From: a phage
Sequence record: PX092659.1
Direction: 5' to 3' (one strand)
Length of the DNA: 64,000 nt
The translations under genes were made by a program, and so were the position numbers. The notes under the pieces are model-generated. The model worked only from the letters and a program-made list of their open reading frames with translations, was not told the DNA's origin and did no database searches. Shown piece after piece: positions 4,396-62,414 of the stretch; the stretch's first letter is position 1; the number at the start of each line of letters is the position of its first letter.

Positions 4396-5286
4396 TTATA
4401 CCAAATCTTTGAGCGATTCAGCAACTAAAATTTCAATACGTTTTGCTAACATATCAATTTCATCTTTGTTTAAATCACCTGGGTCTTTACCTTCAGGCAG
4501 AAGAAAGTTAGCCACTACAGGCGTTAAACGCGTTTTTGTACGAATTAGCTTGGCCAACGCTTGTGCAGCTTTATTACCAGAAGCATCATTATCTAGTAAG
4601 ATAACAACAACTTTTACACCAGCAATAATATAAGGACTGAACTTATCTGCAATGTTATCCGAGGTAAACTGATGTGTACCAAAGCAGCAAGAAGCATAGT
4701 CTATACCATTATCCTCTAGGTTCAGCATATCAAAGATACCTTCAACTAGAATAAGAACTGGAGTATTATATCGTACAGGGAAAATCGGTGGTGAAACTTG
4801 TTTTGGTTTTACTAAGTATTTAGGAGGGGCAGAACTGTTTATAGAACGACCCAAAAATAGGATATTGCGTCCAACAGCATCTGTGATTGGGAATACAATT
4901 CTGCCTTCCCAATTTTCTTGGTGTTGGAAAGCAAAATATTTCTTCAAGGTCTTAGAACTTATACCTCGGAAATCACCTTCGAAAAGAAAGGCAGATTCTG
5001 GGATTGCAAGATTCGTAGATCCATTTCTAATTTCAGAAATTTTTTTACGTACTTGGGATAGTCTTGGAGATTGTCTATATTGAGTTTCATTAAAATAATG
5101 ATAAATACTAGGTATACCTTTGCCAAAACCGCAACTCAAACAGTGCATAATCCCGGTTTCAGGATCAATACGCAAACTTGGGTGTTTATCGTCATGATCT
5201 GGATTCAGGCAGCATATAAGAATATCTCCTCCAGTATCTTTATACTCAATTCCTTTCAGATCAAGTAGTTCTGTTATTCTACTCAT
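4396..5286 (-). CDS. DNA primase (zinc-binding plus TOPRIM)
   Basis: 296 aa; N-terminal Cys-rich zinc motif (CCLNPDH...HCLSCG); TOPRIM-like acidic motifs EGIFDM and LLDND. Confidence 0.7.
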   Translation of the reverse strand: MSRITELLDLKGIEYKDTGGDILICCLNPDHDDKHPSLRIDPETGIMHCLSCGFGKGIPSIYHYFNETQYRQSPRLSQVRKKISEIRNGSTNLAIPESAFLFEGDFRGISSKTLKKYFAFQHQENWEGRIVFPITDAVGRNILFLGRSINSSAPPKYLVKPKQVSPPIFPVRYNTPVLILVEGIFDMLNLEDNGIDYASCCFGTHQFTSDNIADKFSPYIIAGVKVVVILLDNDASGNKAAQALAKLIRTKTRLTPVVANFLLPEGKDPGDLNKDEIDMLAKRIEILVAESLKDLV

Positions 5287-5816
5287 GCGTTTAGCTCCTC
5301 TAATGCAGGATAATTAGACGGGTCGAATATTTCTTGAATAGCGTTTTCCCCATGGAACTGTAGTCGTAGCTTATTAATCTTATCTATTGCTGATTCTAAA
5401 TTCTGGTACTCAAAATATCCACCGAATACTTTCTTTTTATTGGTATCTCTTAGTTGAACTTGCCATTTTTGCCTTTGTTTATTCCAACTAACTCCTATAT
5501 ACCCTGATTTACTTTTAGCTGCTTTATTCCTACTATTCTCTTGGTGAGAAGAATCTTTAAGATTAACCCAACGATTATCACTTCGTATACGGTTTATATG
5601 GTCTACCTCTTCAGGTAAATAACCTTCCATATAGAGAAAAGCTAGTTGATGAGCATAGTAAGGCTTTCCATCTACCCATATACATATATAATCATCTTTT
5701 CTTAAAGAACCAGCTATACTACCAGCTCTTTGATTGCCTCTAGATACTTTTCTAGTAAACTCCCCAGTTCCTGGGGAGTAATCAAATAACTCTTTTAGCC
5801 TTTCCTGTGTTATCAT
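5283..5816 (-). CDS. HNH homing endonuclease (paralog family)
   Basis: 177 aa; N-terminus MITQERLKELFDY shared with other copies; HNH-like region AHQLAFLYMEG...VDHINRIRSDNRWVNL. Confidence 0.7.
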   Translation of the reverse strand: MITQERLKELFDYSPGTGEFTRKVSRGNQRAGSIAGSLRKDDYICIWVDGKPYYAHQLAFLYMEGYLPEEVDHINRIRSDNRWVNLKDSSHQENSRNKAAKSKSGYIGVSWNKQRQKWQVQLRDTNKKKVFGGYFEYQNLESAIDKINKLRLQFHGENAIQEIFDPSNYPALEELNA

Positions 5817-7279
5817 ATATCGCTGGCCTGTTCACCTGTTGAATTTTCAGCTTTGTCTTTCTTAGCACGTTTAGGTTGAGCCGGCTTATCCTTCTCAATA
5901 GGGATAACGAACTCAGCTTCCATTTGAGATATATCTTCCATTGCTAGGTTGGTAGTGTTATCCATTCGCAGAGTTTCCCAGTTCATTTTAGGCATAAACT
6001 TCACGCTATCAGAAGAACGAGTCTTAACGAAGTCAAACATAATAGCACCTTGACCATTATCAGCTTTTGCAGCATTAAGATTAGCAGCCATGTCTGCGGA
6101 ATCAAGAATCCCCTTTGACATACGTGTTCTACCATCCTGATCGATCTGGTAAGGAGCTACACCAGCCACGTTATGTTTCTGGCAGATAGATTTGAAAGAC
6201 GAGCTAACAACCATCTGTTCTTTCCAGTCATACATATCAATGGTTTTAGAATCTGGAAGTCGGGTTTGGTTAATATAGTCCAGTAAAGCTACTGTAACTT
6301 TATCACCATATCTAGCAACTAATTTATTTAACTCTACATCAACTGTTGTAATGGACAGTTCAGGGTCATAAACGATAATCATAGGAGTATGTAGTTCATA
6401 CCCCTCTATTAGTTTACTCTCCATATCGTAGAAATCACTCATCTTAGCCATTGTGTACTGTTTAACAAAGTTATCGAAAAGCTCTTCACCACCATTAAAC
6501 ATTCTAGCTCTAGTTCTGGCTAATCTCAACAGAGCTGCACCTTCTAGAGTATTATTACGCATTGCTAGTGCTGATACACCAGCTAACATGGCTAGATTAC
6601 GTCTAAATACTTCATGTTCTTTCATCTCAATTGAGAAGTATGGAGCAATATCTCCATTCAAATATTGCTGAACCTGTATGTTTGAACAGATAATGGATTT
6701 ACCAGTACCACGCCAACCACCAAGCAGTAACGTTTCTGTGCGAGCTAAACCAATTTGAGCGTCGAACTCATTACAAATACCAAGAGCGATTAAGTTCAGT
6801 TTGGTATCTTCTTCTCTCTGGAAAATACGCATGTTATCTGCGTTGAATACTTTTCCAGTATTCGTTACTTTCTCTTCTAATTTTAAGTGAAGGGAGGCAA
6901 CTCGGTTGAGAATTTCTCCCTGATCCAGCATTGTTAAATCTTGAAGCACGTCTGTTTCTAGAAGCTTCAGGAATAAATCCTGTGTATATTCGGCCTCTAG
7001 GACTTCAAGTGCCTGTTCCATGCTCACTTCTGGAATTTGAGTGTTAGCTAAGACGACTAGAGCTTGAGAAAGGCGGGCGTTCCTATTAGCTTCAAGCATA
7101 AGTGCGTCAATGGACGGCATTGTGTTATATTTTTTATAATAATTCTGGACGGCTTGGTAAATTGAGGAGAAAGCGTCATTAAAATGATCTTTATGCAGTT
7201 TTGAGAATGTTTCCAATGCTATTTGCTTCTGTTCGGAAGCTAGAAGCATCTTCAACACTACAGCTTGCACGTTAAACAT
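5813..7279 (-). CDS. P-loop NTPase, probable replicative helicase-like protein
   Basis: 488 aa; Walker A-like GGWRGTGKS; sits between primase and ligase genes; start ATGA-overlaps upstream HNH stop. Confidence 0.5.
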   Translation of the reverse strand: MFNVQAVVLKMLLASEQKQIALETFSKLHKDHFNDAFSSIYQAVQNYYKKYNTMPSIDALMLEANRNARLSQALVVLANTQIPEVSMEQALEVLEAEYTQDLFLKLLETDVLQDLTMLDQGEILNRVASLHLKLEEKVTNTGKVFNADNMRIFQREEDTKLNLIALGICNEFDAQIGLARTETLLLGGWRGTGKSIICSNIQVQQYLNGDIAPYFSIEMKEHEVFRRNLAMLAGVSALAMRNNTLEGAALLRLARTRARMFNGGEELFDNFVKQYTMAKMSDFYDMESKLIEGYELHTPMIIVYDPELSITTVDVELNKLVARYGDKVTVALLDYINQTRLPDSKTIDMYDWKEQMVVSSSFKSICQKHNVAGVAPYQIDQDGRTRMSKGILDSADMAANLNAAKADNGQGAIMFDFVKTRSSDSVKFMPKMNWETLRMDNTTNLAMEDISQMEAEFVIPIEKDKPAQPKRAKKDKAENSTGEQASDI

Positions 7280-7853
7280 TATCTAGCAGCTCCTCTGTAA
7301 AGTTATCCGCTATATTCTGCGGTTTAACCCTCTCTATATCTAGAGCATCTAGAGCTGCGAAATCTCCATACAGGGCTAAAAGCAGCTTATCTCTATACCA
7401 CAGAGCTTCTCCTAGAGTTTTTAGGGTTTTTCTAAATACTTTGGAGTTTTTAGATATGGTTACTTTAAATGTGTTATTTTTTGTTACTTCTATATTACGA
7501 ATGCCTAGCTTGTTACCTATAAAGCTATTAGCGGAATTTTGAGAGGAAGTAACTTCACGTAAGTTATTCCAAGTATTATCAGTTTTAATTCTATTTTTAT
7601 GATCTACCTTGTCAGGAATTTCTCCTTCCATGTATAGAAAGGCCCACCTATGCGCTCCCATAGATTTTTGTATACCTGACTCTAAGGTTATCTTTATATA
7701 AATGTAGCCCGATGAATGCATATAGCCTGCAGGTTTGTTAGCGTGCTTAGCATTGAACGCAGGATTATTTTCTCTAGGTAGCCAGTAAAAATTTCCAGTA
7801 TCAGGCTCATATCTTAATAATGTTTTAAGATACTGCTGGGTAATCTCCCCCAT
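7272..7853 (-). CDS. HNH homing endonuclease (paralog family)
   Basis: 193 aa; HNH-like region AHRWAFLYMEGEIPDKVDHKNRIKTDNTWNNL. Confidence 0.65.
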   Translation of the reverse strand: MGEITQQYLKTLLRYEPDTGNFYWLPRENNPAFNAKHANKPAGYMHSSGYIYIKITLESGIQKSMGAHRWAFLYMEGEIPDKVDHKNRIKTDNTWNNLREVTSSQNSANSFIGNKLGIRNIEVTKNNTFKVTISKNSKVFRKTLKTLGEALWYRDKLLLALYGDFAALDALDIERVKPQNIADNFTEELLDNV

Positions 7854-7869
7854 TATGTAGCCTTCTAAT

Positions 7870-7897
7870 ATACAAGAAAGGAGAACCGAAGTTCTCC
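7870..7897 (-). terminator. rho-independent terminator (minus strand)
   Basis: Stem GGAGAAC / GTTCTCC with 4-nt loop, followed on the minus strand by TTTCTTGT; lies downstream of CDS 7913-8680. Confidence 0.6.
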
Positions 7898-7912
7898 TTA
7901 TCTGCCTTCTAA

Positions 7913-8680
7913 TTATTCAGCAGCCGCAGCTTTTGCATCCAGTTTAGCACGCTTAGCGGCACCATCATAGTCCTTAGCAACCAGACCACGACGGGACAGC
8001 ATAGATTTAACACCACGCTCAGACTTACCAGTTTTCTCAGCGATCTCAGCAACAGTCATGTTAACCAGATCCAGACCTTCTAACAGATCTTCACGAGTTT
8101 TAGCACTTGAAGTTTCCTGTACCGGCATAGCCGCAATACGACCTTCACGGAGCAGGCTCAGAGCTTTACCACGGATCTGCTTAATATTGCGACCGAAGTG
8201 AGCAGCGATAGCTTCAATAGTAGCACCAGCAACAACCTGATTAACAAAGTCAGTTTCTTCATCCGGAGTGAAGGAACGAACAGCAGCAGCTTTTTCAGTT
8301 GGTTTAACAGAAGCGGTCATTTCCAGACTCAGGATCTTACCCTGTACCTGTTTAGCACCAAACTGACCACCAGCTACAGCAGCAGCGATTTCAGCATAAG
8401 TATACTGACCAGCATGAGCGTTCAGGAAATCAACCAGTTCAGCTTCCTGCTCAGGAGTCCACGGGGATTTCTGTACTTCGTTAGCTTTCTGTACTTCGAA
8501 ACCTTCTTTACGCAGCTTAGAGCCAACAGAGCGAGCGGTAACGTCTTTGCCAGTTTCAGCAGCCAGTTCAGCAGCGATAGCCGCTACTTGTTCTTGAGAG
8601 ATTACAGCAACACCCAGAGCAGTGGCTTTTGCTTTCAGAGACTCGGTTACACCTTCTACGTTCCAGTTCAGTTTAGACAT
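7913..8680 (-). CDS. hypothetical Ala/Lys-rich protein with internal repeats (possible DNA-binding early protein)
   Basis: 255 aa; three internal repeats of the form AEIA...G...K; position next to the ligase resembles the D5-type gene of T5-like phages. Confidence 0.45.
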   Translation of the reverse strand: MSKLNWNVEGVTESLKAKATALGVAVISQEQVAAIAAELAAETGKDVTARSVGSKLRKEGFEVQKANEVQKSPWTPEQEAELVDFLNAHAGQYTYAEIAAAVAGGQFGAKQVQGKILSLEMTASVKPTEKAAAVRSFTPDEETDFVNQVVAGATIEAIAAHFGRNIKQIRGKALSLLREGRIAAMPVQETSSAKTREDLLEGLDLVNMTVAEIAEKTGKSERGVKSMLSRRGLVAKDYDGAAKRAKLDAKAAAAE

Positions 8681-9455
8681 TATTATTTTTCTCCAATAGT
8701 TCTTTAATCGACAGGATTTCTATCCCATTCGTTTCGGCTTTCTTATAAGATGAGGAAGAACGCTTCGATTCATCCTCACAGATTAGGTATTTGACGTCTT
8801 TGGTAACGGATTTCTTAACCGTATATCCTAGACCTTCTAAATAGTTTGTTGCATCCGTTCTATTTGCAAAATCTTGCAAAGATCCGGTAATACATACCGT
8901 TATTCCGTTTGGTTGGGCTACTAGACCATCAGTGATGATGACCTCAGCTTTAGCACCTTTAATACCGGTTGTGAATTTCCATGGTAATTCGATAACATCC
9001 TTGCCTTGTGGGGAATTTAGCCAGGCTTTATAATTTTCTCCAGCTTTGCCATCAGCTCTCACATCATGGAAGCTAGTGCAATTTTGGGATAATTTCTTTG
9101 CTGCAACCTCTCCAATTAGAGGGATTCCTAAAGAACCGAGAACTGAACCAAAGTCAATGTCTCCGCGAACTTTAGTATTTAATTCGCTAATTAACTTAGC
9201 GGCAACCTTGCTACCCACGGCTCTAACCAAATCTTCTTCGGTTAGGTAAAATAGTTCTGAAATCTTCGTCAGCTCCAGCTTCTCAATAGTTTTTGGGCCA
9301 AAGCCCTTTAACTTCATTTTTGTACAGAAGTTCTCAATTAACTTACTTGACTGCGCTGGACAGTTGGACTTATTCCTACAGAATAATTGTCCGTTGACAA
9401 GATCTAGCTTAGAACCACAAGAGGGACATTGTGTTGGAATTTCGATTTTCATCAA
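8673..9455 (-). CDS. ligB: NAD-dependent DNA ligase, C-terminal subunit (zinc finger / HhH / BRCT)
   Basis: 260 aa; Cys4 zinc finger CPSCGS...CRNKSNC; HhH-like and BRCT-like C-terminus (VCITGSL); complements the adenylation-domain ORF at 9655-10626. Confidence 0.75.
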   Translation of the reverse strand: MMKIEIPTQCPSCGSKLDLVNGQLFCRNKSNCPAQSSKLIENFCTKMKLKGFGPKTIEKLELTKISELFYLTEEDLVRAVGSKVAAKLISELNTKVRGDIDFGSVLGSLGIPLIGEVAAKKLSQNCTSFHDVRADGKAGENYKAWLNSPQGKDVIELPWKFTTGIKGAKAEVIITDGLVAQPNGITVCITGSLQDFANRTDATNYLEGLGYTVKKSVTKDVKYLICEDESKRSSSSYKKAETNGIEILSIKELLEKNNNV

Positions 9456-9482
9456 ATTTCTTCCTTATCAATTTATATAAAT

Positions 9483-9511
9483 ATTATAGCAAGTATTTAA
9501 GCATTTAGCAA
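9483..9511 (-). promoter_or_regulatory. sigma70-type early promoter (minus): TTGCTA-N17-TATAAT
   Basis: Reverse complement reads TTGCTA, 17-nt spacer, TATAAT; member of the repeated cassette. Confidence 0.65.
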
Positions 9512-9575
9512 CTACAATTTTAACTAACTTTGCTCACCCTCGCCATAACTTTCTATCCCTCAACTGAATGATAAT

Positions 9576-9604
9576 AGTATATACCTAAGCGGCGAAAATG
9601 TCAA
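9576..9604 (-). promoter_or_regulatory. second promoter class (minus): TTGACATTTTCGC-type
   Basis: Reverse complement reads TTGACA ttttcgccgcttaggta TATACT; shares a 13-nt identity TTGACATTTTCGC with the promoter at 39953-39981. Confidence 0.55.
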
Positions 9605-9654
9605 TAACCACTTTATAATTCCGATATGGTAGATGGGTAGCAAAGGGTTATGTA

Positions 9655-10626
9655 TTAATCATATACTCGCTCTACTATGCACGGGATTACACCACCAGCA
9701 CGAATCACTCGAATCTGGCAACCGATCTCTAGATCGAGAGAGTTAATATAATCAACGTTATTAAGAGTCGCTTTAACAATTGTAGCATCATCAATAATTA
9801 CCGGTTCGAAATAACCAACTGGAGTTACTTTACCAGAAGCCCCTACCTGCCACTCAACTTTAGTAAGAGTTGTAATCTCGCCTTCTTCATCCTCTTTAAC
9901 AGCAAATGCTCCACGAGGGAATTTATTAGTCCAGCCTTCACGGAAGAATTTGTTGTTGTCATTAATACGAACAACTTTACCGTCCGTCGGAATCCATTTA
10001 AAGAAGGAACGCACATTAACAACTGTTAAGAAGTTCTCATTCTCTAGCCAAAGCATATCTTTTAAGTATGCTTCTGTAATACCTACAGATTCAGCAGAAC
10101 ACTGGATACCATAAGCAACAAAGATTAAACCACCTTCCCCGATACGTTGTACGAAATCATCACTATCTTTGAGGTTAATAGCACCAGAGGCAAAGTTACG
10201 TTTATTTTCTACTTCTTTTGTAATTAGAACTTCACCAGTGATTTGAGTTGGTACTTTTTGGGAAATCTTTTTAGGGATATTCAGCAGTCTTACGTTGCTT
10301 GTGACATCATTCCCTAGAATACCATTACCACGAGTTAGTGCTTGAACAAATTCGCCATTAATATATAGTAGAGAAATCGCACAACCATCTAACTTGTCAG
10401 TTTCTACCTGACCTAATGGGTTAAATGGGGGTTTATCTCCACGATTATAATAAACTTTCTGTAAAGAATACATACGATACAGATGTGGAATATCGCCCTT
10501 AGGCCCGATCTCTTCTTCTAACGGAAATCTTTTAATCAGACGATCATATTCTTCGTCAGAGATTAAAGACATTCCCTGGTAATATGCTTCTTGACAGCGT
10601 TTAATAAATTCTTTTACATTGGTCAT
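9655..10626 (-). CDS. ligA: NAD-dependent DNA ligase, N-terminal adenylation/OB subunit
   Basis: 323 aa; adenylation lysine motif KLDG (ETDKLDGCAISL); separated from the C-terminal half by a 199-bp promoter-containing spacer. Confidence 0.75.
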   Translation of the reverse strand: MTNVKEFIKRCQEAYYQGMSLISDEEYDRLIKRFPLEEEIGPKGDIPHLYRMYSLQKVYYNRGDKPPFNPLGQVETDKLDGCAISLLYINGEFVQALTRGNGILGNDVTSNVRLLNIPKKISQKVPTQITGEVLITKEVENKRNFASGAINLKDSDDFVQRIGEGGLIFVAYGIQCSAESVGITEAYLKDMLWLENENFLTVVNVRSFFKWIPTDGKVVRINDNNKFFREGWTNKFPRGAFAVKEDEEGEITTLTKVEWQVGASGKVTPVGYFEPVIIDDATIVKATLNNVDYINSLDLEIGCQIRVIRAGGVIPCIVERVYD

Positions 10627-10657
10627 TTATTTATATCTCTCATTAATTTATATAAAT

Positions 10658-10686
10658 ATTATATAACAAAACTGAGTTGAAAGCAA
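10658..10686 (-). promoter_or_regulatory. sigma70-type early promoter (minus): TTGCTT-N17-TATAAT
   Basis: Reverse complement gives TTGCTT, 17 nt, TATAAT upstream of ligA. Confidence 0.65.
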
Positions 10687-10692
10687 ATACAT

Positions 10693-11004
10693 TTATTCTT
10701 TTTCCGCCAGGCGTTTAGCTTCTTTTTCTACTTCTAATAAAACCTCACTATTAGATAATATTTTAGTAAATGCCTTAAATAAATGAGATGTTGTTTCTAG
10801 AGTGTATGGCATACTGAATCCACTTTTTGTTGGAAACCATTCACCTTCTATATCTTGGAGCCAGTACCTAATTCCTAAGTATAGATTCCCCCTAAACTCA
10901 GATACAGTTAGCCTAACCTGTTGGCCATCTTCTCTTTCCCAGATAACTATGGACTGATCATCTACATGTCCAACATAATCCTGATTTACATTATCTCCCG
11001 ACAT
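10693..11004 (-). CDS. hypothetical protein
   Basis: 103-aa track ORF, co-oriented; overlaps downstream gene start. Confidence 0.5.
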   Translation of the reverse strand: MSGDNVNQDYVGHVDDQSIVIWEREDGQQVRLTVSEFRGNLYLGIRYWLQDIEGEWFPTKSGFSMPYTLETTSHLFKAFTKILSNSEVLLEVEKEAKRLAEKE

Positions 11005-11651
11005 TTTATTGCTCCCTGACTTAGGAGATATTCCTCTGCCTCCTCTGGTTGAATATTAAAAAACTCAGTAGAACCATCAAATATTGATTCTGTAAATATC
11101 TGTGTAGTACTAAAAAATCTATGAGCTTTATTTTCTAGATTATACGCTGACTCATCATAAGAGTATACTCCATATATACTCAAGTCCTCCAGATTAGAAT
11201 CTTTTTTGATCTCTAAAAGTCTTCTATCTGGACTTTTAGATGTTCCTATTTTTGTGCCTAGTTGTGGGCTATAAAATACGTATAAATAGCTAGTAGATTT
11301 ACACATAGGGCATGATCTACCAGCATTTTTAACTTTATCTACACTACTAGTCCACGTGTGTCCGTGGGTGCACTCAAATATTGCCGGACTTTGGGAATTT
11401 ATATAGGAGGATATAAGTTTTATACCTTTAGTACTTAACTGTTGATTTATGACCTCTACAGTTAGTTTAGCTTTGCCACTACAATAAGGGCAGCCACTAC
11501 CTTTCCGTATATTACTTAAATATCCCTTCCATTGATGACCTTTTGAACACTCAAATATAGCGGGTGTTCTTATATTAGCCCATTCACTCACTATATGAAA
11601 ACCTAGTGGCTCTAACTCTTTATTTATTTGCTCTTCTGTTAATTTTTTCAC
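10986..11651 (-). CDS. Zn-ribbon repeat protein with C-terminal T5orf172-like (GIY-YIG superfamily) domain
   Basis: 221 aa; repeated CxxC zinc-ribbon units (GSGCPYCSGK, GRSCPMCKS) then YVFYSPQLGTKIGTSKSPDRRLLEIK; paralog of 22845-23708. Confidence 0.55.
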   Translation of the reverse strand: MKKLTEEQINKELEPLGFHIVSEWANIRTPAIFECSKGHQWKGYLSNIRKGSGCPYCSGKAKLTVEVINQQLSTKGIKLISSYINSQSPAIFECTHGHTWTSSVDKVKNAGRSCPMCKSTSYLYVFYSPQLGTKIGTSKSPDRRLLEIKKDSNLEDLSIYGVYSYDESAYNLENKAHRFFSTTQIFTESIFDGSTEFFNIQPEEAEEYLLSQGAIKCREIM

Positions 11652-11663
11652 TATAATTTACAT

Positions 11664-11689
11664 ATGACAAAGGAGAGCCGAAGCTCTCC
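11664..11689 (-). terminator. rho-independent terminator (minus strand, possibly bidirectional)
   Basis: Stem GGAGAGC / GCTCTCC with CGAA loop; T-run on both sides. Confidence 0.6.
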
Positions 11690-11698
11690 TTTTCTTTA

Positions 11699-11989
11699 TT
11701 ATTTTTTGCCTACTGGCGTAGCTCTATCAAGTTCACTAGACAATGAAGTGACACGTTTCACCTTATTTACAGGAATAAATCGGAAGCTATCATTAGTGCG
11801 ACTAAACACTAGAATTTCGTCATCTTTTGGTTGACGGATACGCTCCTGAGCAAAACGTTTACTTAGGTACTTATCAGTAAAATCCATAGTGCCCTGTAAA
11901 TAGGTAGTGCCCTTTTGACGGAGCTTTTCGTAATGAAGATAAAATTCATTATGAGCTTCACATGCGGAGATAATTTCTTGCTTAGTCAT
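11699..11989 (-). CDS. hypothetical protein
   Basis: 96-aa track ORF, co-oriented. Confidence 0.5.
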   Translation of the reverse strand: MTKQEIISACEAHNEFYLHYEKLRQKGTTYLQGTMDFTDKYLSKRFAQERIRQPKDDEILVFSRTNDSFRFIPVNKVKRVTSLSSELDRATPVGKK

Positions 11990-12004
11990 TTTTAATCCCC
12001 CTTA

Positions 12005-12415
12005 TTACTTAGTGATAGCTCGGATTGCTTCTGCCAGATGAGCAGCCGCTTTACCGGTCAGTTTGTCGATAATTGCATCATCCAGAAAATCTGGTGCTAA
12101 GCCAGCATCAGAGAACGCTGAACGAAGATCAGCATGAGCTTGGGCTTTGGAGGTACGAGAGCCACCGGAAGCTTTTTCTCCAGTAGATGCACTAGATTTA
12201 GAAGTAGAACCAGCAGCTTTCTTGATATACAAACCTGCTTTAGTCAGTTTCATACGAAAACCGTTCGGAGTTACACCATTTTCCTGGGCAATTTCACTAA
12301 CAATTTCCATGCTAACGCCCGGACGTTCATCCTCTGGGAATTGCTCCATACGAGCAACGTATTCGGAAGACATTTTTTCGAACAGTTCATCAGTCCACTG
12401 AGTTGGAGTAGTCAT
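12005..12415 (-). CDS. hypothetical protein
   Basis: 136-aa track ORF; promoter cassette at 12473-12501 just upstream. Confidence 0.5.
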   Translation of the reverse strand: MTTPTQWTDELFEKMSSEYVARMEQFPEDERPGVSMEIVSEIAQENGVTPNGFRMKLTKAGLYIKKAAGSTSKSSASTGEKASGGSRTSKAQAHADLRSAFSDAGLAPDFLDDAIIDKLTGKAAAHLAEAIRAITK

Positions 12416-12472
12416 ATTTTATATTTCCTTAATTAAGAATTAAACAGAATAGTTCTTTCAAACTATGAGAAT

Positions 12473-12501
12473 ATTATATCAAGAATTATAGGATTAAGCA
12501 A
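12473..12501 (-). promoter_or_regulatory. sigma70-type early promoter (minus): TTGCTT-N17-TATAAT
   Basis: Reverse complement gives TTGCTT, 17 nt, TATAAT. Confidence 0.6.
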
Positions 12502-12518
12502 CTGAAATTTTTAAGTAG

Positions 12519-12794
12519 TTACTCCACTAGGCCAACAGCGAGCATATCATCAATGCTGGCAACCTCCCAATCGTCCGCAATAGCTTCGCATACTGTTAAT
12601 GAAACAACCTCGCTATATGGATAGTTACCGGCTACCCAGGTATGCTGAGTAGCTACATCCGAGTCAGCATCTAAAGTTAGTAACACTAAGCCGTTATTAT
12701 CGTTATCCCAGCTTCTGCGATATAGTGTTTTTACTTCCCCATCTTTAAGTAAATCAGTTAGTTTACTCACGGCGTTTTCCTTTTTCTTTATCAA
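12519..12794 (-). CDS. hypothetical protein
   Basis: 91-aa track ORF, co-oriented. Confidence 0.45.
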   Translation of the reverse strand: MIKKKENAVSKLTDLLKDGEVKTLYRRSWDNDNNGLVLLTLDADSDVATQHTWVAGNYPYSEVVSLTVCEAIADDWEVASIDDMLAVGLVE

Positions 12795-13467
12795 GTTTCA
12801 AGGCAGCCTTAACAGCTTCGTTAATCAGTGTGATAACTTCTTCCCGGGACCATTTGTACCCCAGAGACTTTACATCAACCCCTAACTTTTCCAGATGTTT
12901 AACAGAAGCCAGCTCGTAATTCATATAATGAACGTTCTGTTGTTTGCCTTCCGATAGTAACCAGACTCGATAACAACCAACAGGATTATCCATTGCTTTT
13001 TTGATTTCACCGATACACTGGTATCCAGGAACCCAAACTAGTTCTCCAACTTCAAATTCTTCTGCTACAGCATCATCAGGAATAATTGGAGGATTCAATG
13101 GATCTACAATATCGTTCAAACGAAGTAGAGCACCATATCGTTCCAGAACAGATTTAACCATTGCTACAGAGCGATAATTACGATCGGCAATCTCTTCAAA
13201 AGAATCGCCAGATAGATACTGTTCAATAACGTTGGCCAACTCAATACCTTCAATGAGTGTACCACGTTTCTTTTTCTTCATCTCAGCAACTTGAATCTGG
13301 CGGTCTTGCCATTCTTCAATCATCCTTTCCATAGTTGGGTTGGATGATACACCGAGCATTTCACATGCTGCTTTCTTAGTACCACCGTTCTCCAGATGCT
13401 CTATAACTTTTTTAAAGACTTCATCCGGGATTTCATGGATATGTTTTTTTCTGCGAGAACCAGCCAT
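12763..13467 (-). CDS. hypothetical protein, possible HTH DNA-binding protein
   Basis: 234 aa; basic N-terminus followed by a helix-turn-helix-like segment (TKKAACEMLGVSSNPTMERM); promoter cassette immediately upstream. Confidence 0.5.
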   Translation of the reverse strand: MAGSRRKKHIHEIPDEVFKKVIEHLENGGTKKAACEMLGVSSNPTMERMIEEWQDRQIQVAEMKKKKRGTLIEGIELANVIEQYLSGDSFEEIADRNYRSVAMVKSVLERYGALLRLNDIVDPLNPPIIPDDAVAEEFEVGELVWVPGYQCIGEIKKAMDNPVGCYRVWLLSEGKQQNVHYMNYELASVKHLEKLGVDVKSLGYKWSREEVITLINEAVKAALKLDKEKGKRRE

Positions 13468-13498
13468 ATTTAAACTCCTCTCTCAAATTTATGAATCT

Positions 13499-13527
13499 AT
13501 TATACAGAAAATTTTTCCTGAAAGCAA
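13499..13527 (-). promoter_or_regulatory. sigma70-type early promoter (minus): TTGCTT-N17-TATAAT
   Basis: Reverse complement gives TTGCTT, 17 nt, TATAAT, then cataaatttgagagagg before the ATG. Confidence 0.65.
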
Positions 13528-13535
13528 ATAAATTT

Positions 13536-13877
13536 TTACGATTCCTTGAGTAAAGAAGAAAGTTCAGCATATACTTTATCTAACTCAAACCCTATGCGAA
13601 GAGATACGTTAGTCCTCCGTTGTTTAAGTAACCACTCGGATATGTTAGGGATACCAGCTAATCTATGTGGTACCACCCTACATAGCTTTTCCGAAGTGTC
13701 ATAAACAGGAACTTTACGTTCTTTTACTGGGAACTTCCTTGTTTCCCATTTCTTATTCTTCACTGTCATATCTCTCCGAGGGATTAAATTCACCAAACAG
13801 CTCTTTAACTCCCCTAAGGTATAGCTGATGGGCTTCTTCCGGGGTATCTCGTCTACCAAAAATATGTTGCTTTCCAT
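13536..13877 (-). CDS. hypothetical protein (uncertain; overlaps HNH gene by about 125 nt)
   Basis: 113-aa track ORF in a different frame from the 3' end of 13753-14283; may start later or be spurious. Confidence 0.3.
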   Translation of the reverse strand: MESNIFLVDEIPRKKPISYTLGELKSCLVNLIPRRDMTVKNKKWETRKFPVKERKVPVYDTSEKLCRVVPHRLAGIPNISEWLLKQRRTNVSLRIGFELDKVYAELSSLLKES

Positions 13878-14283
13878 CGCAGTAAGCGTAGGCCATATAC
13901 CTATTACCTCGTTTTACAACTCCAGTGAATCCGGTAGAATTAGTAGAACACTTCTTATTCTTCCCATTTTCGGAATAGGTAGCCTTACGTAAATTATCCC
14001 ACAAGTTGTTTAAACTATCGCCGTCTTTATGGTCAATAGTTTTACCCCCAGGATCTTCACCTGTCTTTATAAACCAGATTATTCTATGGGCTAAGTAAGC
14101 TGTCCGCTCCCCATTTATCGTAAACTCTAGCTGTCTCCCAGTTTTCATTTTGGAGCCCGCTACCTTTCCCTTCCTTGGGCCAGATAACCAAATTAAGTCC
14201 CCAGTACTTTCGTCATACCTAAGCTTTTCTAGGATAAATGCCATAGGAGGCATTGGTTTATGCATTTTCATTAGTTGCTCCAA
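13753..14283 (-). CDS. HNH homing endonuclease (paralog family)
   Basis: 176 aa; AHRIIWFIKTGEDPGGKTIDHKDGDSLNNLWDNL HNH-like motif. Confidence 0.65.
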   Translation of the reverse strand: MEQLMKMHKPMPPMAFILEKLRYDESTGDLIWLSGPRKGKVAGSKMKTGRQLEFTINGERTAYLAHRIIWFIKTGEDPGGKTIDHKDGDSLNNLWDNLRKATYSENGKNKKCSTNSTGFTGVVKRGNRYMAYAYCDGKQHIFGRRDTPEEAHQLYLRGVKELFGEFNPSERYDSEE

Positions 14284-17044
14284 GTTCGGACAGTACTTCT
14301 TCTGCCATAGCCTTCTCTTCCTCTGTCATGAATTTGAAAGGAATTGGCATACACTCGATTTTACAATAGGTTCTGTACCAGTCTACGATATTCTCCGTGT
14401 TCATATCTTTACCAATACCCATCATACCAAGATACATTCTAGCATATTTTGGGTTAGCACTCTGACCTGTTTTAAGGAAGAAGTCCTTCTTCTTACCTTT
14501 CAGAGCCTCTATGAATGGTTTAATGGTCACATTTGAACACTTCTTAATATCTTCCCAGAACATCTCGTGCATCTTATGGAAGAATGCAGCTCGATCATTC
14601 GGTTTATCTTTGATATATTGTTCAACATGCTCAACTGTTACATCTTTAATAGACTCGAGATGATAATAGCGAACAAGAAGTAGCTTAGCTTCATATGCAT
14701 CCGCATGGCGCGGAGCACAATAATCAGGAGTTGAGTGCAGAATAGCTTTGATTCGCTCCTCTGTGTACTCTTTACCAGCACCTTCAATAGTTCCCCAGCT
14801 TTCACTGAAAATATCAATAGTTGCACCCTGATCAAGCAAGTAATAACGTAAAGTACTAGTATAGTTCCTAGATTCTAATTCCCTGCGACGTGCGTATAAT
14901 TGCTGTGCTAACTCCAGCCAACCTTCATCAATATTATATTGTTCAGAACCTGCGGAGAATCCACTCGTAGATTTATCAATAAAATAATAGATATTTTGAG
15001 CACCACGGTCGCGCCTGATTGCTTGGAAACGCATGTTTGGCGCTTGATTACTAGTTCTAGTAATAACGAATACGTTATCAAAATAGTTGAAGTCAACACC
15101 ACTCGTTACGGATGGACTACATAATAAGCAATCAATTTGTTGATCAATTAGCTCATTAGTTGTGTAATCCAGAATACGTCTAATATCTACATCAGACGTA
15201 GAGTTTGAGTGGATTTCCTTAACTAACGCACCCGTATTACGACGCAACGCCATGCCCTTCTCATTCAGTTCATCTGGCCCACAGTCAGATACTAGGATAG
15301 ATTTCTCACCCATCTCCAGGGAAGTCTGAAGTGCAACCCAAATACTAGACTCATCAGGGAACTCATAAGCATGAGCTTTTGATAGCATTTTACGGTGGTG
15401 ATTGTAAAATGCAACCGGTTTATCAAACTCAATCAAAGAACCATATGCTTCAATTGTTTCTGCACTAATATCCCCATCAGATAATATAATGATTTTTGCA
15501 GTTGCAAGAATATCCCGAAGAACCTGAATACATTCACGACGTTGTTTAACAACCGGGGCGAATAATAGGTCATTCATTACAGCGTCACATTCATCGATAA
15601 AGATTGCATCGATTTGACCAATAAAACTCTTGAACTTATGTAAAGAGTGAATAGTTGTGGACATACGGTCAATAGCGCCACGCTTAAAATTAAGCATATC
15701 TACAGACTTATCATATTGTCCTGCACTAAATTTCTTAGCATTTGAAGATACCAGTGCTCGAGTATTGGTAATTGCTAAGAAATTACCTTTAATAACTCCT
15801 GAATCTAACCAACGAACAACAGCCGTTGTTTTACCCGTGCCTAGGCTTGCTTTTACAAAAGTCATATAGCCTTCTGGTGGTACAGTATTTAATTTCAAGA
15901 AGTTGTCGGTCTCTAGTGAGTTAGTCTCTAGTTTTTTAAGTGGAATACCTTTTAAAACATCAGGTATATCACGTTTAGAATTATTCACAAAGGCTTTTAA
16001 CGCCTGCTTACGACCGTTATTAAAGTAATCTTGAATATTACGACTATTATCTTTAGTTGCAATATACTCAGATAAAGCTGGGCGGATCTCCTTCTCTAGC
16101 CAGCCAAAATCTACACCATCCTCTAGTGCTCGGTGATAGAGTTTAGGAATAATACGTAGATATACACCATCCTCAGCTTCTTCTAACTCGCTGATGGTTT
16201 CTTCTACTTTATCAGAGGCAGCTTTTTTACCCTTAATTTGGTCTAGTAAAGAGTAGAACTCTTCCTTAAACTCACCTCTAGTTGTTTCATAGTCAACTAG
16301 ATTATTAGGTAAATTTACTTTTGAGCCTTTAACAAATACCAGACGTGAAGCACCCTCCGCTTTAAACGGATCTACTATACCATCAGTGAATAAAGGATCT
16401 GCAAAGTAATGGAGCTGTACGGAAGAGTAATAAGCTAAGTCGGCAATATCAAAGCCATACTTTTGTCTACTACTTTCGTTGATAGATGTAAATAAGAATT
16501 TGATTTGACCCTGAGTTACTTTAACATTAGATTCTAGTATTAAGTGCATTCGGATACCTGGTTTTAGCCCAGCCGAAGACGATGCATGAGCGATAAACCC
16601 TGCATCAAGAGGAAACATATCCTCACTAATACTATTTAACATTCTAATAATATGTCGAGCCATGCCAACAAGATCAAACTTGTTACAACCACCTGTATCT
16701 ACAATACCATCCACGTCCATTGCAATTATATGACTTGGGTTAGATACATTAAAGTTGCCCTTCTTACGTCGCACATTATTTTTAGGTGCAAGACATCGAC
16801 CTCGTACCGCAACGATATGAGGGTCAGACGTTAAACGTCTCATAAGAGGAAGCATTTCTACTAGGGTTTGAGGATCAACTTCATCAATTACATCAAACTT
16901 GAAGGGCATTGAAGCTGGTTTACCTTCAGGATGCTTTGAGGAAAATCTTTTAGCAAAAAGATAGTCTTCTGCTTTAACTTCTCGCCAATTGCCTGTGGCT
17001 AAATCGCGATGAAATCCTGCATGACCTTGTAGGATTGAAAACAC
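14258..17044 (-). CDS. large P-loop NTPase, replication-associated (origin-binding / helicase-like)
   Basis: Track ORF starts at TTG 17122; GTG at 17044 preceded by AGGAG is the more likely start. Walker A KASLGTGKTT and Walker B-like IFIDECD. Confidence 0.55.
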   Translation of the reverse strand: MFSILQGHAGFHRDLATGNWREVKAEDYLFAKRFSSKHPEGKPASMPFKFDVIDEVDPQTLVEMLPLMRRLTSDPHIVAVRGRCLAPKNNVRRKKGNFNVSNPSHIIAMDVDGIVDTGGCNKFDLVGMARHIIRMLNSISEDMFPLDAGFIAHASSSAGLKPGIRMHLILESNVKVTQGQIKFLFTSINESSRQKYGFDIADLAYYSSVQLHYFADPLFTDGIVDPFKAEGASRLVFVKGSKVNLPNNLVDYETTRGEFKEEFYSLLDQIKGKKAASDKVEETISELEEAEDGVYLRIIPKLYHRALEDGVDFGWLEKEIRPALSEYIATKDNSRNIQDYFNNGRKQALKAFVNNSKRDIPDVLKGIPLKKLETNSLETDNFLKLNTVPPEGYMTFVKASLGTGKTTAVVRWLDSGVIKGNFLAITNTRALVSSNAKKFSAGQYDKSVDMLNFKRGAIDRMSTTIHSLHKFKSFIGQIDAIFIDECDAVMNDLLFAPVVKQRRECIQVLRDILATAKIIILSDGDISAETIEAYGSLIEFDKPVAFYNHHRKMLSKAHAYEFPDESSIWVALQTSLEMGEKSILVSDCGPDELNEKGMALRRNTGALVKEIHSNSTSDVDIRRILDYTTNELIDQQIDCLLCSPSVTSGVDFNYFDNVFVITRTSNQAPNMRFQAIRRDRGAQNIYYFIDKSTSGFSAGSEQYNIDEGWLELAQQLYARRRELESRNYTSTLRYYLLDQGATIDIFSESWGTIEGAGKEYTEERIKAILHSTPDYCAPRHADAYEAKLLLVRYYHLESIKDVTVEHVEQYIKDKPNDRAAFFHKMHEMFWEDIKKCSNVTIKPFIEALKGKKKDFFLKTGQSANPKYARMYLGMMGIGKDMNTENIVDWYRTYCKIECMPIPFKFMTEEEKAMAEEVLSELGATNENA

Positions 17045-17643
17045 AACAATACTCCTGTGTTGGAAATGGAATAAGTTTTCTTTAGGACTATTCAGAAAGA
17101 ATAGAACAACTGTTACTGTCAATTTCTCAACAAATTAATTGCAAATACTGAAGTGGGGTGGCAACTTCCACTTTCACGCTGCGCTGCTGCCTCATTATAC
17201 CGCACAAATCCTTGAGGATGGCCGCTAAGCCAGATTTGCTCACCTAATGCTTCATATACTAGCTCATACTAGATGCAATATAACTTACAGAATCACGTCT
17301 CGGTAGTTTTTCACTCCTCCCATCTCACTTCACAACCACCTCATACTAGGTTGCTTCGAGGCCTTACCAGGGTTCCTATGGGACGCAGATCGCTAAGTAT
17401 TCTATTAACTATTTGCTTAAAAACTAACACGTAACAGTTAAAACAACCCTTAATGGGGCAGCCTAACTGTTCCGTATCGCGGATTGTAAACAAGAAAAAA
17501 CTTTTTCGTAAAGCTCTAGCAACGTACCTTATGCAGCTATTTACGGGTCATCGATTCCTCTCGCCGTAAATCTCTTGTCAGCTTCACTAAGAAAAATTAG
17601 TAAAAGATCAATTTTTACTAATGTCTCTCAATTCAATATAAAT

Positions 17644-23708: not shown

Positions 23709-23736
23709 TACTCTTCTCCATAGAATTTTTACATTT

Positions 23737-23765
23737 ATTATACTAAACATTATCCACCATGTCAA
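23737..23765 (-). promoter_or_regulatory. sigma70 promoter (minus): TTGACA-N17-TATAAT, leftward arm of divergent region
   Basis: Reverse complement gives TTGACA tggtggataatgtttag TATAAT. Confidence 0.6.
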
Positions 23766-28070: not shown

Positions 28071-28078
28071 GAGAACTA

Positions 28079-40792: not shown

Positions 40793-40867
40793 GGGTCGGT
40801 AGCTTAAAGTTAAAGCGGTGGCCTCATAAGCTAACGAGTAGGAGTTAGATTCTCCTCCGACCCACCA
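40793..40867 (+). tRNA. tRNA with CAT anticodon (Met, fMet or Ile2 type)
   Basis: Perfect acceptor GGGTCGG/CCGACCC, D-stem GCTT/AAGC, anticodon loop CTCATAA, T-arm AGGAG-TTAGATT-CTCCT. Confidence 0.7.
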
Positions 40868-41291: not shown

Positions 41292-41477
41292 ATGTCTAAG
41301 TTTCAAGAACTCAAGCAAGAGCTAGAAGAATGTGCCTGCCCTGAGTGTAGAGGAATTGGTGAAAGTTCTGATGCAGAAGCAGGAGATACTTTTTGCAATA
41401 TCTGGGTTTGCCCAACTTGCAATGGTACAGGTATTAATCCTAACTGCGGTATTTCCCTAGATATTGAGCGAGGATAA
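41292..41477 (+). CDS. hypothetical small Cys-rich protein (two CxxC pairs)
   Basis: 61 aa; CACPECRG ... CPTCNG. Confidence 0.45.
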   Translation: MSKFQELKQELEECACPECRGIGESSDAEAGDTFCNIWVCPTCNGTGINPNCGISLDIERG

Positions 41478-52606: not shown

Positions 52607-53305
52607 ATGAGGATTATTTCTAAGTTCGCCGATGTTTATGATTTGCAGAACAGTTTGTTCGACCCAGATCGTGTTTGGGAACGTAAAACTGAAGAGTTGC
52701 TGGTTAAAGTAACCGATGATGCAGAAAAGAACATTGTGCATACTCGCCAGGTATTTCGTGATGGCTCGCTATCTTTTCGTGGTGATTTCGAATATTTTGT
52801 AAACCCACTATTTGTTGCAGGTGAAGTTTACTGGTTGCACGAGCTGTACTGCTGGCATCCGGCATTTAGCTTCAAAACGTTCAACCTCGACACTATGTTC
52901 GATAAAATGGAAGAGATGGGATTGCATGCCCGCTCTTACTTAATGGATAAGAGTCGTGGAGATGTTCGTGAAACAATGCGTGATTTGCTCATTGAAGCAA
53001 AACCTAAAGCAGAACGTATCTTGTCCGAACTGCGTGTACCGATTGCATATGTGAAAGGTATTAAAAAGAACGATAATGATGATGTTCGTAACTTCGTGAT
53101 TCAGACTAACATTCGTTTCCATCAGTCAGGTATTCCGTGGCAGGAAATTGAAAGTAACTTATATCGTTTACACCAGATGATCGAGCAATATATCTGGGGC
53201 GTGTTAGGAACCGGTGAGCCTGATATGATTACCACTTCCGATAAGGATCGCTTAACCGCACATGGATTTGATACTGTTACTTCTTTTAGGAATATGAAAA
53301 GATGA
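52607..53305 (+). CDS. hypothetical protein
   Basis: 232-aa track ORF after CAAGAGGATTAAAT RBS. Confidence 0.5.
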   Translation: MRIISKFADVYDLQNSLFDPDRVWERKTEELLVKVTDDAEKNIVHTRQVFRDGSLSFRGDFEYFVNPLFVAGEVYWLHELYCWHPAFSFKTFNLDTMFDKMEEMGLHARSYLMDKSRGDVRETMRDLLIEAKPKAERILSELRVPIAYVKGIKKNDNDDVRNFVIQTNIRFHQSGIPWQEIESNLYRLHQMIEQYIWGVLGTGEPDMITTSDKDRLTAHGFDTVTSFRNMKR

Positions 53306-53799
53306 TCAGTAAGGAAGAGCTAAGAAGAATGTTCGATTACCAAGAAGATGGTAATCTTATCTGGAAACCCAGGGAAGGGGACGAACATTTTAATAAGATA
53401 TTCGCCGGAACAGTAGCAGGATCTAGACAAAGTACAGGGCATAGAGTAGTTGAACTATATAATGGTTCCATAGCTATAGGGGCACATAGATTAATCTATG
53501 CATGGCATACTGGAGAATGGCCTGAAATAGTTGATCACAAGGATAAAGACCCAACTAATGATAGATTTGAGAATCTAAGACCTGCTACAAGATCTGATAA
53601 TGCTTGTAACCAAAAAGTAAGAAGCGATAACCATTTAGGCGTTAAAAATATCCATAGAAAAACAAATGGGACTTACCAAGTAAGAATTACCAAACACGGT
53701 AAGCAAGTTTCGAAAACACTTAAGAGTTTGGAAGAGGCTATAAAATGGCGGGATACCAAACTCAAAGAACTCCACGGTGAGTTTGCGAGTACAGGCTAA
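53302..53799 (+). CDS. HNH homing endonuclease (paralog family)
   Basis: 165 aa; MISKEELRRMFDYQEDGNLIWKP and AHRLIYAWHTGEWPEIVDHKDKDPTNDRFENL. Confidence 0.65.
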   Translation: MISKEELRRMFDYQEDGNLIWKPREGDEHFNKIFAGTVAGSRQSTGHRVVELYNGSIAIGAHRLIYAWHTGEWPEIVDHKDKDPTNDRFENLRPATRSDNACNQKVRSDNHLGVKNIHRKTNGTYQVRITKHGKQVSKTLKSLEEAIKWRDTKLKELHGEFASTG

Positions 53800-54242
53800 T
53801 GCGGAAATGGTTTGTAGACTTAGTTTGGAATAACAAGATATACATCCTGGGAGCAGGTCTAGCGATAGGCATCGGGTTCGGTGCTTATCACTTAGTAGAT
53901 AAAGTGGAGACTTTAGCAGGAGATCTTGCGGTAGCTACTAAAAAGATTTCTTCTCTAGAAACCTCCCTTAATAAGGTGAAAGCTGAAAGCGAACTTCGTG
54001 AGACTAGAATGAATCAGTATTTCACGATGAATAATATTTCTCAAGCAGACTTAGATAAGAAAATTGGTCAGCTTGATAAGGCACTTAGCCGCCAAGATAT
54101 TATAGCTGCAAAGCCCGGATTGGTAACATTAATTGCTAAAAAGCAGAGTAAAGAGTTCGAGGAAAGATTAGCGTGTTTAACTGGAAACTTGGAATACTGC
54201 TCGCAGCCGCAATCACAATCACAGGCTGTGCACAAGAAATAG
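53799..54242 (+). CDS. TM plus coiled-coil protein (i-spanin-like candidate)
   Basis: 147 aa; N-terminal TM helix (IYILGAGLAIGIGFGAY) then coiled-coil-like periplasmic region; 3' end overlapped out of frame by a lipoprotein ORF. Confidence 0.4.
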   Translation: MRKWFVDLVWNNKIYILGAGLAIGIGFGAYHLVDKVETLAGDLAVATKKISSLETSLNKVKAESELRETRMNQYFTMNNISQADLDKKIGQLDKALSRQDIIAAKPGLVTLIAKKQSKEFEERLACLTGNLEYCSQPQSQSQAVHKK

Positions 54243-59185: not shown

Positions 59186-59187
59186 TT

Positions 59188-61573: not shown

Positions 61574-61605
61574 AAGTTCATAAATTAATGAGAGAGGAAA
61601 TTCTA

Positions 61606-61884
61606 ATGGAAAACATGACTAAAGACTTCGACGCCTCTAACCTTACCAAGACTGAAATGGCCAATGTATTAGCAATTCTCCTCGACATGCAAGGATTTGA
61701 GGGGCAACTGATGAAAATGTCTATTCCGGCGATGAAGAAGATGTATGATTCTCTTAACAAGAACGCTATGGCCTTTAACTTAGCAAAACAAGAGGCACGC
61801 TTTGCTAAGGAGCATCAAGCAGTGGCAGAACGCCGAGCAGCTAGCTTTGAGCGTGAAGTCAAGCAATTAAAGAAAAAATGCTAA
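61606..61884 (+). CDS. hypothetical protein
   Basis: ATG 61606 (MENMTKDF) after GAGAGG; track ORF extends to 61588. Confidence 0.4.
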   Translation: MENMTKDFDASNLTKTEMANVLAILLDMQGFEGQLMKMSIPAMKKMYDSLNKNAMAFNLAKQEARFAKEHQAVAERRAASFEREVKQLKKKC

Positions 61885-62414
61885 CACAAGAAAGATTAAA
61901 AGAGTTATTTGAATACCGCCCGGAAACGGGCGAGTTTATAAGGAAAGTCAGTAGAGGACGAGGTAAAGCAGGTAGTATTGCTGGTAGTCCTGATAAGGAT
62001 GGTTATATATTTATTGGGATAAATAGAAGAAGATATGCAGCCCATAGGTTAGCCTTTTTGTACATGGAGGGGTATATTCCAAATCTAGTACACCACTTAA
62101 ATAATATAAGAAAAGATAATAGATGGTGTAATTTAAAAGATTGTACGTCCCAAGAAAATAATCGTAGCAAAATCGCTCAATCTAATTCGGGGTACTTAGG
62201 AGTTACCTGGAAAAAAGATCGACAACAATGGAGAGTCCAGGCCAGAAGCGCCGAAAGCATTACAGTACACGGAGGCTACTTTAGGTATCTAGATTTAGAG
62301 TTGGCAGTTCAAAGAGCTAATGAACTACGTTTAGAACTACATGGGCCTAATGCTGTTATAGAAACTTTTGATCATACAAAACCCTTACCTACTTTAGAGG
62401 ACTTAAATAAATGA
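61878..62414 (+). CDS. HNH homing endonuclease (paralog family)
   Basis: 178 aa; MLTQERLKELFEYRPETGEFIRKV and AHRLAFLYMEGYIPNLVHHLNNIRKDNRWCNL; closest paralog of 5283-5816. Confidence 0.7.
   Translation: MLTQERLKELFEYRPETGEFIRKVSRGRGKAGSIAGSPDKDGYIFIGINRRRYAAHRLAFLYMEGYIPNLVHHLNNIRKDNRWCNLKDCTSQENNRSKIAQSNSGYLGVTWKKDRQQWRVQARSAESITVHGGYFRYLDLELAVQRANELRLELHGPNAVIETFDHTKPLPTLEDLNK

Follow-up and report, generated by a model that had tools for sequence, protein, structure and literature searches.

The DNA considered here, a 64,000-nucleotide stretch of a phage genome (sequence record PX092659.1, the whole of which is called the window below), raises the question of why seven related HNH-type open reading frames (ORFs) lie dispersed in it, and whether they represent mobile elements, decaying passengers or nucleases retained for the benefit of the phage. 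The ORFs, numbered copies 1 to 7, are located at 5283–5816, 7272–7853 and 13753–14283 on the minus strand and at 27555–28070, 40882–41283, 53302–53799 and 61878–62414 on the plus strand. We suggest, with a probability of about 0.85, that all seven are free-standing homing-endonuclease genes (HEGs) spreading by homing; their expression, their cleavage or nicking specificity and homing itself are the parts of this reading that we infer.

The mechanical ORF list contains all seven ORFs, and their coordinates and strands agree exactly with those of the original prediction. The HNH region that it described as common to them is recognised in each copy by the Pfam HNH_3 family (PF13392), with scores of 31.5–70.4 bits against a gathering cutoff of 24.8. 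In their alignment, H73, N85 and N94 (copy-1 numbering) are invariant and correspond to the DH...N...N catalytic motif of I-HmuI (PDB 1U3E), the sole solved structure detected by a profile of the seven copies (E = 1.2e-8). The catalytic His and Asn residues, whose disappearance from most copies had been named as the contrary outcome, are lost in 0 of the 7. Five copies have D immediately before the catalytic His; copy 5 has E there and copy 7 has H. The same profile, applied with filters off to all six-frame ORFs of at least 40 amino acids (aa), returned exactly these seven (E from 1e-38 to 1e-78, the next match having E = 0.5), and no further HNH_3 copies or decayed fragments were detected in the window. 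Six of the copies match phrog_99 (“HNH endonuclease”), and copy 5 matches phrog_1492/59/959. The N-terminal box proposed to be conserved (MITQE.LK..Y.P.TG.F) holds for copies 1, 2, 4, 6 and 7, is degenerate in copy 3 and is absent from copy 5, which is only 26–36% identical to the other six. The likeness of the seven goes far beyond what chance would give. Judged by their sequences, they are real, intact HNH homing-endonuclease genes; within the His-Me finger superfamily they belong to the HNH_3 branch, which is I-HmuI-like.

The architecture of the encoded proteins agrees with this assignment. In copies 1, 2, 3, 4, 6 and 7 a beta/helix box at the N-terminus is followed by an I-HmuI-like HNH domain and by a predicted C-terminal DNA-binding domain of the AP2 type. 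For copy 1, and for this copy only, the beta-beta-alpha-metal fold is supported by an AlphaFold2 model (mean predicted local distance difference test score of 84), for which Foldseek returned I-HmuI as the top PDB match with a probability of 1.0. Among the plant AP2 domains matched by the C-terminal domain of the same model is that of AtERF1 (1GCC; probability 0.98, with a TM of 0.66 on the target); the Pfam AP2 score of copy 1 is below the gathering score (18.3 vs 33.3 bits, E = 0.0029). The AP2 assignment thus represents a structural match for copy 1 and an alignment over the same region for the other five copies. HNH_3/I-HmuI proteins with AP2 modules are classed as homing endonucleases (PMC5714182). 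Copy 5 (133 aa), which has the highest HNH_3 score (70.4 bits), lacks the AP2 module and comprises little beyond the nuclease. We considered that it might be a truncated remnant and rejected this: its nearest homologues (down to about 55% identity) in a database of 5.8 billion proteins are mostly 130–153 aa long, and copy 5 is therefore full length and not a fragment.

A megablast of window positions 4000–15000 against the phage collection retrieved hundreds of Tequintavirus and related records with 90–96% identity, phage T5 included, and by this likeness the window belongs to a Tequintavirus, that is, a T5-like phage; the T5 record AY543070 is antiparallel to it. The early region spanned by the window contains the genes for DNA polymerase, primase, D6 helicase, D5, the split ligase, the origin-binding helicase, nrdD and phoH, followed by nrdA/nrdB, frd, thy, the tRNA cluster (24 tRNA genes), dnk and then small early genes. 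All seven HNH ORFs are in this early region of the T5-like genome.

Three of the sites are as originally claimed: copy 1 (177 aa) lies between the D6 helicase and primase genes, at the site of T5 hegJ/P-TflX, to which it has 64% aa identity; copy 4 (171 aa) lies between nrdA and nrdB and is the orthologue of T5 hegH/P-TflVIII (99.4% identity); and copy 5 is in the tRNA cluster, after tRNA-Ser(GCU) and tRNA-Met(CAU). Copy 2 (193 aa), placed earlier between helicase and ligase, does adjoin the D6 helicase gene, but its other neighbour is D5, with ligase subunit B beyond it; in T5 this site is empty. Copy 3 is at the 3' end of the gene for the origin-binding helicase (obp, the T5.108 homologue, 14258–17122) and is orthologous to T5 hegI/P-TflIX (98.8% aa identity); it likely starts at ATG 14271 (172 aa), as annotated in T5, rather than at TTG 14283. 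Copy 6 (165 aa), the orthologue of T5 hegF/F-TflVI (98.8% identity), lies between the homologues of T5.047 and T5.045, and copy 7 (178 aa) stands in place of the small gene T5.031, its site corresponding to T5 15819–15994. The description of the sites as lying between essential genes is therefore to be narrowed: four of them adjoin genes of replication or nucleotide metabolism, but copies 6 and 7 are found among small hypothetical early genes.

The junctions are fitted closely to the neighbouring genes. Copy 1 is inserted exactly in the ATGA overlap of the helicase stop and the primase start and recreates ATGA at its own end. Copy 6 is likewise inserted in an ATGA overlap, and its own stop overlaps the next start (TAATG), while the stop of copy 2 overlaps the D6 helicase start (ATGTTTAA). 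Copy 3 is inserted in the last obp codons, its final 17 nucleotides (nt) being the obp 3' end of HNH-less genomes. Copy 4 has a TTG start with its own AAGGAG ribosome-binding site and is preceded by a TATAAT element. Each HNH gene is co-oriented with its neighbours, and most overlap neighbouring genes at the start or the stop. The insertions, so far as can be read from these junctions, preserve the operon, and because of the overlaps the host operon probably drives the HNH genes through read-through and translational coupling while itself staying undisturbed.

To compare occupancy of the seven sites, each insert with 600 bp of flank per side was queried against 50,697 phage records, and an insert was counted as present when at least 80% of it was covered. 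The sites were matched by 358–514 records each; as some of these are GenBank/RefSeq duplicates or nearly identical isolates, the frequencies should be read as approximate. Inserts were present in 72 of 445 records for copy 1 (a second allele, about 70% identical in DNA, being counted in), 12 of 514 for copy 2, 24 of 441 for copy 3, 75 of 444 for copy 4, 1 of 412 for copy 5 (YJin-2024a), 41 of 445 for copy 6 and 62 of 358 for copy 7 (this allele or a second one, about 72% identical and about 70% at the DNA level), which amounts to 0.2–17% of records per site. In most of the remaining records both flanks match and a stretch of roughly ORF length is cleanly missing between them.

Distances between flank anchors and the identity of the flanks were determined in about 26–29 T5-like genomes from IMG/VR. 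The distances are bimodal or multimodal, and for copies 1–3 and 6 the filled sites have exactly the length of the window insert. At the copy 1 site the anchors are 4 or 534 bp apart, the 30 loci comprising 19 empty ones, 10 with the T5-type allele and 1 with the window allele. The copy 2 site measures 37 or 582 bp (filled in 2 of 30 loci), the copy 3 site 29 bp when empty or 531 bp when filled, and at the copy 6 site the anchors overlap or lie 1 bp apart when it is empty and are separated by 498 bp when it is filled. The nrdA/nrdB site of copy 4, at which several records have an annotated HNH gene, was represented by 28 loci (T5 counted twice), with the window allele in 6 (516 bp), no insert in 15 and non-homologous inserts of 466–514 bp in 7. 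At the copy 7 site, distances of 33, 171–174, 388, 405 or 537 bp occur. Non-homologous alternative inserts were found at the nrdA/nrdB, tRNA and copy 7 sites.

The comparison with HNH-less relatives, recommended in the original prediction, thus reveals presence/absence polymorphism at all seven sites, with boundaries precise to the base. In the HNH-less relatives the two neighbouring genes are directly adjacent and intact, which means that the inserts are free-standing and lie inside neither introns nor inteins. YJin-2024a carries copy 5 and lacks copy 6, so that none of the records examined holds all seven, and the elements appear to assort independently.

The polymorphic genes are not decaying. 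Orthologous alleles in other phages are all intact, and the ratio of nonsynonymous to synonymous divergence from the window copy (dN/dS) is 0–0.17, with dS up to 0.45; for this reason the HNH proteins, as far as these alignments go, are maintained under purifying selection.

Identity of the flanks to the window tracks HNH status only near the insert, and the groups converge further out. At copies 1, 2, 3, 4, 6 and 7, the near-fixed differences that separate genomes with the HNH gene from those in which the site is empty or holds something else are limited to the 25–300 nt beside the insert, and their number falls to zero further out. The clearest illustration is copy 4. Here the block at 28071–28220 (plus strand), the first ~150 nt around the nrdB start, has 25 near-fixed differences and none beyond, and a further 6 are found in 25 nt on the upstream side; in the first 200 nt after the insert, genomes with the same allele are 97–98% identical to the window, vs 79–84% for empty or otherwise occupied ones. 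These differences are largely synonymous, since the nrdB protein stays 96–100% identical, and 28071–28220 is a candidate target or immunity region of copy 4. At copy 3 the block occupies 14284–14358 (minus strand) within the 3' end of the gene for the origin-binding helicase, with 14 differences in 75 nt and 97% vs 85% identity, and near-fixed differences are absent further out and on the other side. Copy 6 is followed by a recoded 5' end of the downstream gene (53800–53849, plus strand; 13 differences in 50 nt) and has 9 near-fixed differences at 25–125 nt upstream. Copy 7 has 6 in 25 nt upstream, and at copy 2 the D5–D6 intergenic segment at 7854–7928 (minus strand) is replaced, with 38 near-fixed differences in 75 nt upstream. 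For copy 5, it is the neighbouring tRNA(CAU) gene that differs, and the linkage is not strict. Intronless homing would be expected to leave such a pattern through co-conversion tracts, through target-site immunity or through both, but the pattern is not in itself proof of endonuclease action. The segment which arrived with copy 2 also contains, at 7854–7912 (minus strand), a terminator-like hairpin, AGGAGAACTTCGGTTCTCCTTTCTT, vs GGGGAGGGGGCTATGCTCCTTCCCCTTTTT in HNH-less genomes.

Comparison with T5 by tblastn and global alignment adds to the picture of the paralogues. Copies 3, 4 and 6 are hegI, hegH and hegF (98.8–99.4% identity), and for T5 hegA, hegC, hegD and hegE tblastn yielded no orthologues in the window, only paralogous matches; the number of heg-type genes is about equal in the window and the matching T5 interval, but the sets differ. 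The nearest paralogues of copy 7 are T5 hegJ (60%), copy 1 (59%) and hegE (54%). Copy 1 and T5 hegJ occupy the same site, and their first 34 residues are alike except for one substitution, with 64% identity overall. Copies 7 and 1, hegJ and hegE form a subgroup of 54–64% identity distributed over three different sites, a pattern that suggests recombination or site switching among the HNH paralogues.

The tRNA-cluster site of copy 5 is more complex. It was compared from an anchor on tRNA-Ser, because the tRNA(CAU) gene itself varies between phages, and at least five arrangements of the interval from tRNA-Ser(GCU) to tRNA-Leu(UAA) were found. In most relatives it holds a different tRNA(CAU) gene and then a small ORF; T5 has that tRNA and then hegA; in some phages the window-type tRNA-Met(CAU) is joined straight to the sequence following tRNA-Leu(UAA). 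The window-type tRNA followed by copy 5 occurs in the window and one GenBank phage only. The tRNA-Met(CAU) variant itself (40793–40867, plus strand) is directly upstream of copy 5 and differs from the tRNA(CAU) (Ile2) of T5 and most relatives. The conserved 3' ends of the tRNA genes look like recombination joints. One may ask whether copy 5 travels together with its private tRNA-Met(CAU) variant as a mobile “tRNA + HNH” cassette, which we regard as improbable. If this were so, T5-like phages would exchange tRNA alleles, and with these entire segments of the tRNA cluster, through homing of the cassette, and endonuclease-driven exchange would reshape the phage tRNA repertoire, which is reportedly used against host defences that target tRNA. 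Right after copy 5 there is an ORF (41292–41477, plus strand) for a Cys-rich protein of 61 aa with CxxC motifs, present in some relatives and absent in others; it gives a weak match to a DnaJ CXXCXGXG-like domain and matches phrog_6060 (“anti-termination protein Q-like”).

How might the seven genes spread? During co-infection with an insert-less relative, the enzyme would bind a long, degenerate site of the HEG-less allele near the insertion point and, to judge from its family, would nick or cut it. Recombinational repair from the HEG-carrying genome would then copy the HEG together with a short flanking tract, and the carrier allele would be shielded by synonymous or recoded differences in its flanks. 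The outcome would be super-Mendelian spread and local marker exclusion. The activity of homing that the original prediction supposed is in line with the comparative data, in which polymorphism, precise boundaries, intact alleles under purifying selection and localised flank differences fit ongoing or recent homing. Several observations have to be set against the proposal. To our knowledge, biochemical characterisation exists only for T5's F-TflI, -II and -IV, all absent from the window, and the activity of the seven window proteins is deduced. In copy 7 a His and in copy 5 a Glu replace the Asp before the catalytic His, both residues being plausible metal ligands. The 20 near-fixed differences of copy 1, located 50–300 nt into primase (4983–5233), come from two carrier sequences only (the window and one locus), and the flanks of copy 2 past 75 nt are about 98–100% identical in both groups, that is, they do not diverge. 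Finally, linked flank haplotypes could arise through ordinary recombination that moves the block as a whole, with no endonuclease involved.

HEGs are expected to pass through cycles of invasion, fixation and decay (PMC3326045), and the seven genes may therefore be regarded as former homing endonucleases, now inactive or decaying and kept as passengers by linkage to their neighbours. The window copy 4, three codons shorter than T5 hegH, could be taken as a sign of this. We consider such a state improbable, because all alleles examined are intact with dN/dS of 0–0.17, the H/N/N triad is invariant and copy 5 is full length for its subfamily. Purifying selection would also be compatible with domestication, that is, with HNH proteins beneficial to the host genome as packaging cofactors (as HK97 gp74 is with terminase), AP2 regulators or nucleases of defence or counter-defence, and the predicted DNA-binding AP2 domain and the embedding of the genes in early operons point the same way. 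However, each gene is dispensable, in that most relatives lack it, different non-homologous inserts occupy the same site, and the haplotype blocks beside the inserts are typical of homing, which makes domestication highly improbable in our view. The packaging variant was rejected separately: no HNH gene of the set is near the terminase gene, which belongs to the late region outside the window.

The original prediction also connected the HNH genes with the site-specific nicking known for T5-type virion DNA, and this connection is not supported. HNH enzymes of the I-HmuI type are nickases (PMC3017599), and one or more of the seven might accordingly be the nickase behind the strand-specific single-chain interruptions. 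Major interruptions are marked in the T5 record, their consensus containing GCGC, and at 38190–38197 (plus strand) the window contains AGCGCAGG, a match to R/GCGCRGG, the consensus of the major nicks; its position is orthologous to that of the T5 nick 39746/39747. But according to a paper by the depositors of the T5 record, the two genes affecting nicking, sciA and sciB, were mapped to the late region, and what the nicks do biologically is unknown (PMC3517423); all seven HNH ORFs are early. No heg gene is annotated in the late region of the T5 record, and each of the seven is sparse, occurring in 0.2–17% of T5-like records, whereas the nicks are common to T5 and BF23 (PMC10644984). The consensus is not enriched in the window, which has 4 matches vs an expectation of 1.95, a count of 4 being reached in 16 of 100 shuffles. 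A role of the seven in virion nicking is thus very unlikely. What is plausible, by likeness to I-HmuI, is that the HNH enzymes nick the target DNA of homing. A second plus-strand match to R/GCGCRGG is located at 20359, and the window dnk gene has no exact match, although an annotated nick is present in T5 dnk.

Two other ORFs of the window deserve attention as endonuclease candidates of the GIY-YIG clan, both absent from the earlier list of endonuclease genes. The ORF at 10986–11651 (minus strand; 221 aa), near ligA, has a treble-clef zinc finger (DUF4379), CapR and MUG113/T5orf172 domains. It has no T5 counterpart at its site and is present in 4 of 29 loci (666 vs 16 bp); the T5.115-like gene adjoining it is 99–100% identical in carriers vs 72–75% in non-carriers. 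It is probably another free-standing homing-endonuclease gene, not of the HNH_3 family. The second T5orf172/MUG113-type candidate (22845–23765, minus strand; 306 aa) is directly upstream of nrdD (21032–22858, minus strand), with a 14-nt overlap. It occurs in 27 of 444 records and is linked to an nrdD allele of the window type, with only 57% aa identity to that of T5; with the query for the nrdD site, only the phoH side matches in most records. Both ORFs match phrog_681 (“endonuclease”), have treble-clef zinc fingers and CapR, and vary in presence among relatives, their flanks being strongly linked to them.

T5 was predicted to have nine homing endonucleases and its relatives one or two, with nrdA–nrdB as an insertion hotspot comparable to that of T4 mobE (PMC3326045), and most of the differences between T5-like genomes, which are syntenic in other respects, have been ascribed to HEGs, the F-Tfl enzymes among them (PMC10644984). 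The HNH genes of the window, most likely active, are, then, of an ordinary kind already known from T5 and annotated in AY543070, and the window adds new alleles and a new combination, one found in no other record examined and including the rare inserts of copy 2 (12/514) and copy 5 (1/412). The significance is modest and lies chiefly in correct annotation, and HEG-driven mosaicism matters for phylogenies and engineering of T5-like phages. The haplotype blocks offer candidate target regions for the seven HNH enzymes, which probably nick long sites; on a bolder reading, which we hold to be improbable, they would pinpoint seven new nickases with long recognition sites.

Among known systems, the heg series of T5 (hegA–hegJ, F-TflI to P-TflX; AY543070/NC_005859) is similar to the window genes in genome type, location in the early region and tRNA cluster, and protein family. 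The differences concern individual sites: the hegJ site is occupied by copy 1, an allele of 64% identity, the copy 2 site is empty in T5, copy 7 replaces T5.031, and copy 5 replaces the unrelated hegA/F-TflIV. I-HmuI and I-BasI of the Bacillus phages SPO1 and Bastille have the HNH_3 domain and the DH...N...N spacing in common with the window genes, I-HmuI being the best structural match to copy 1. However, I-HmuI, a monomeric nickase that initiates homing (PMC3017599), is encoded inside a group I intron and has a C-terminal NUMOD/helix-turn-helix part, while the window genes are free-standing, six of them have a predicted AP2-type domain, and the identity is about 20%.

In lifestyle and kinds of sites, the window genes resemble T4 MobE (nrdA/nrdB) and SegB (tRNA cluster). 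The free-standing HEGs of T4 perform intronless homing with co-conversion of flanking markers (PMC3326045, PMC2330249), and the SegB paper, which describes an analogous tRNA-cluster case, mentions the enzymes of the T5 tRNA region (PMC2330249). The proteins themselves differ, as MobE has an HNH domain of the PF01844 type from another His-Me finger group and SegB belongs to GIY-YIG, and the phage lineage of T4 is not that of the window. In architecture, the closest parallel is with the HNH-AP2 homing endonucleases (His-Me finger group 2), proposed as ancestors of the plant AP2/ERF domains, in which HNH_3 is followed, as predicted for six of the window genes, by an AP2-like three-stranded sheet and a helix; the differences from this group are the sub-threshold Pfam AP2 match of copy 1 and the lack of the domain in copy 5.

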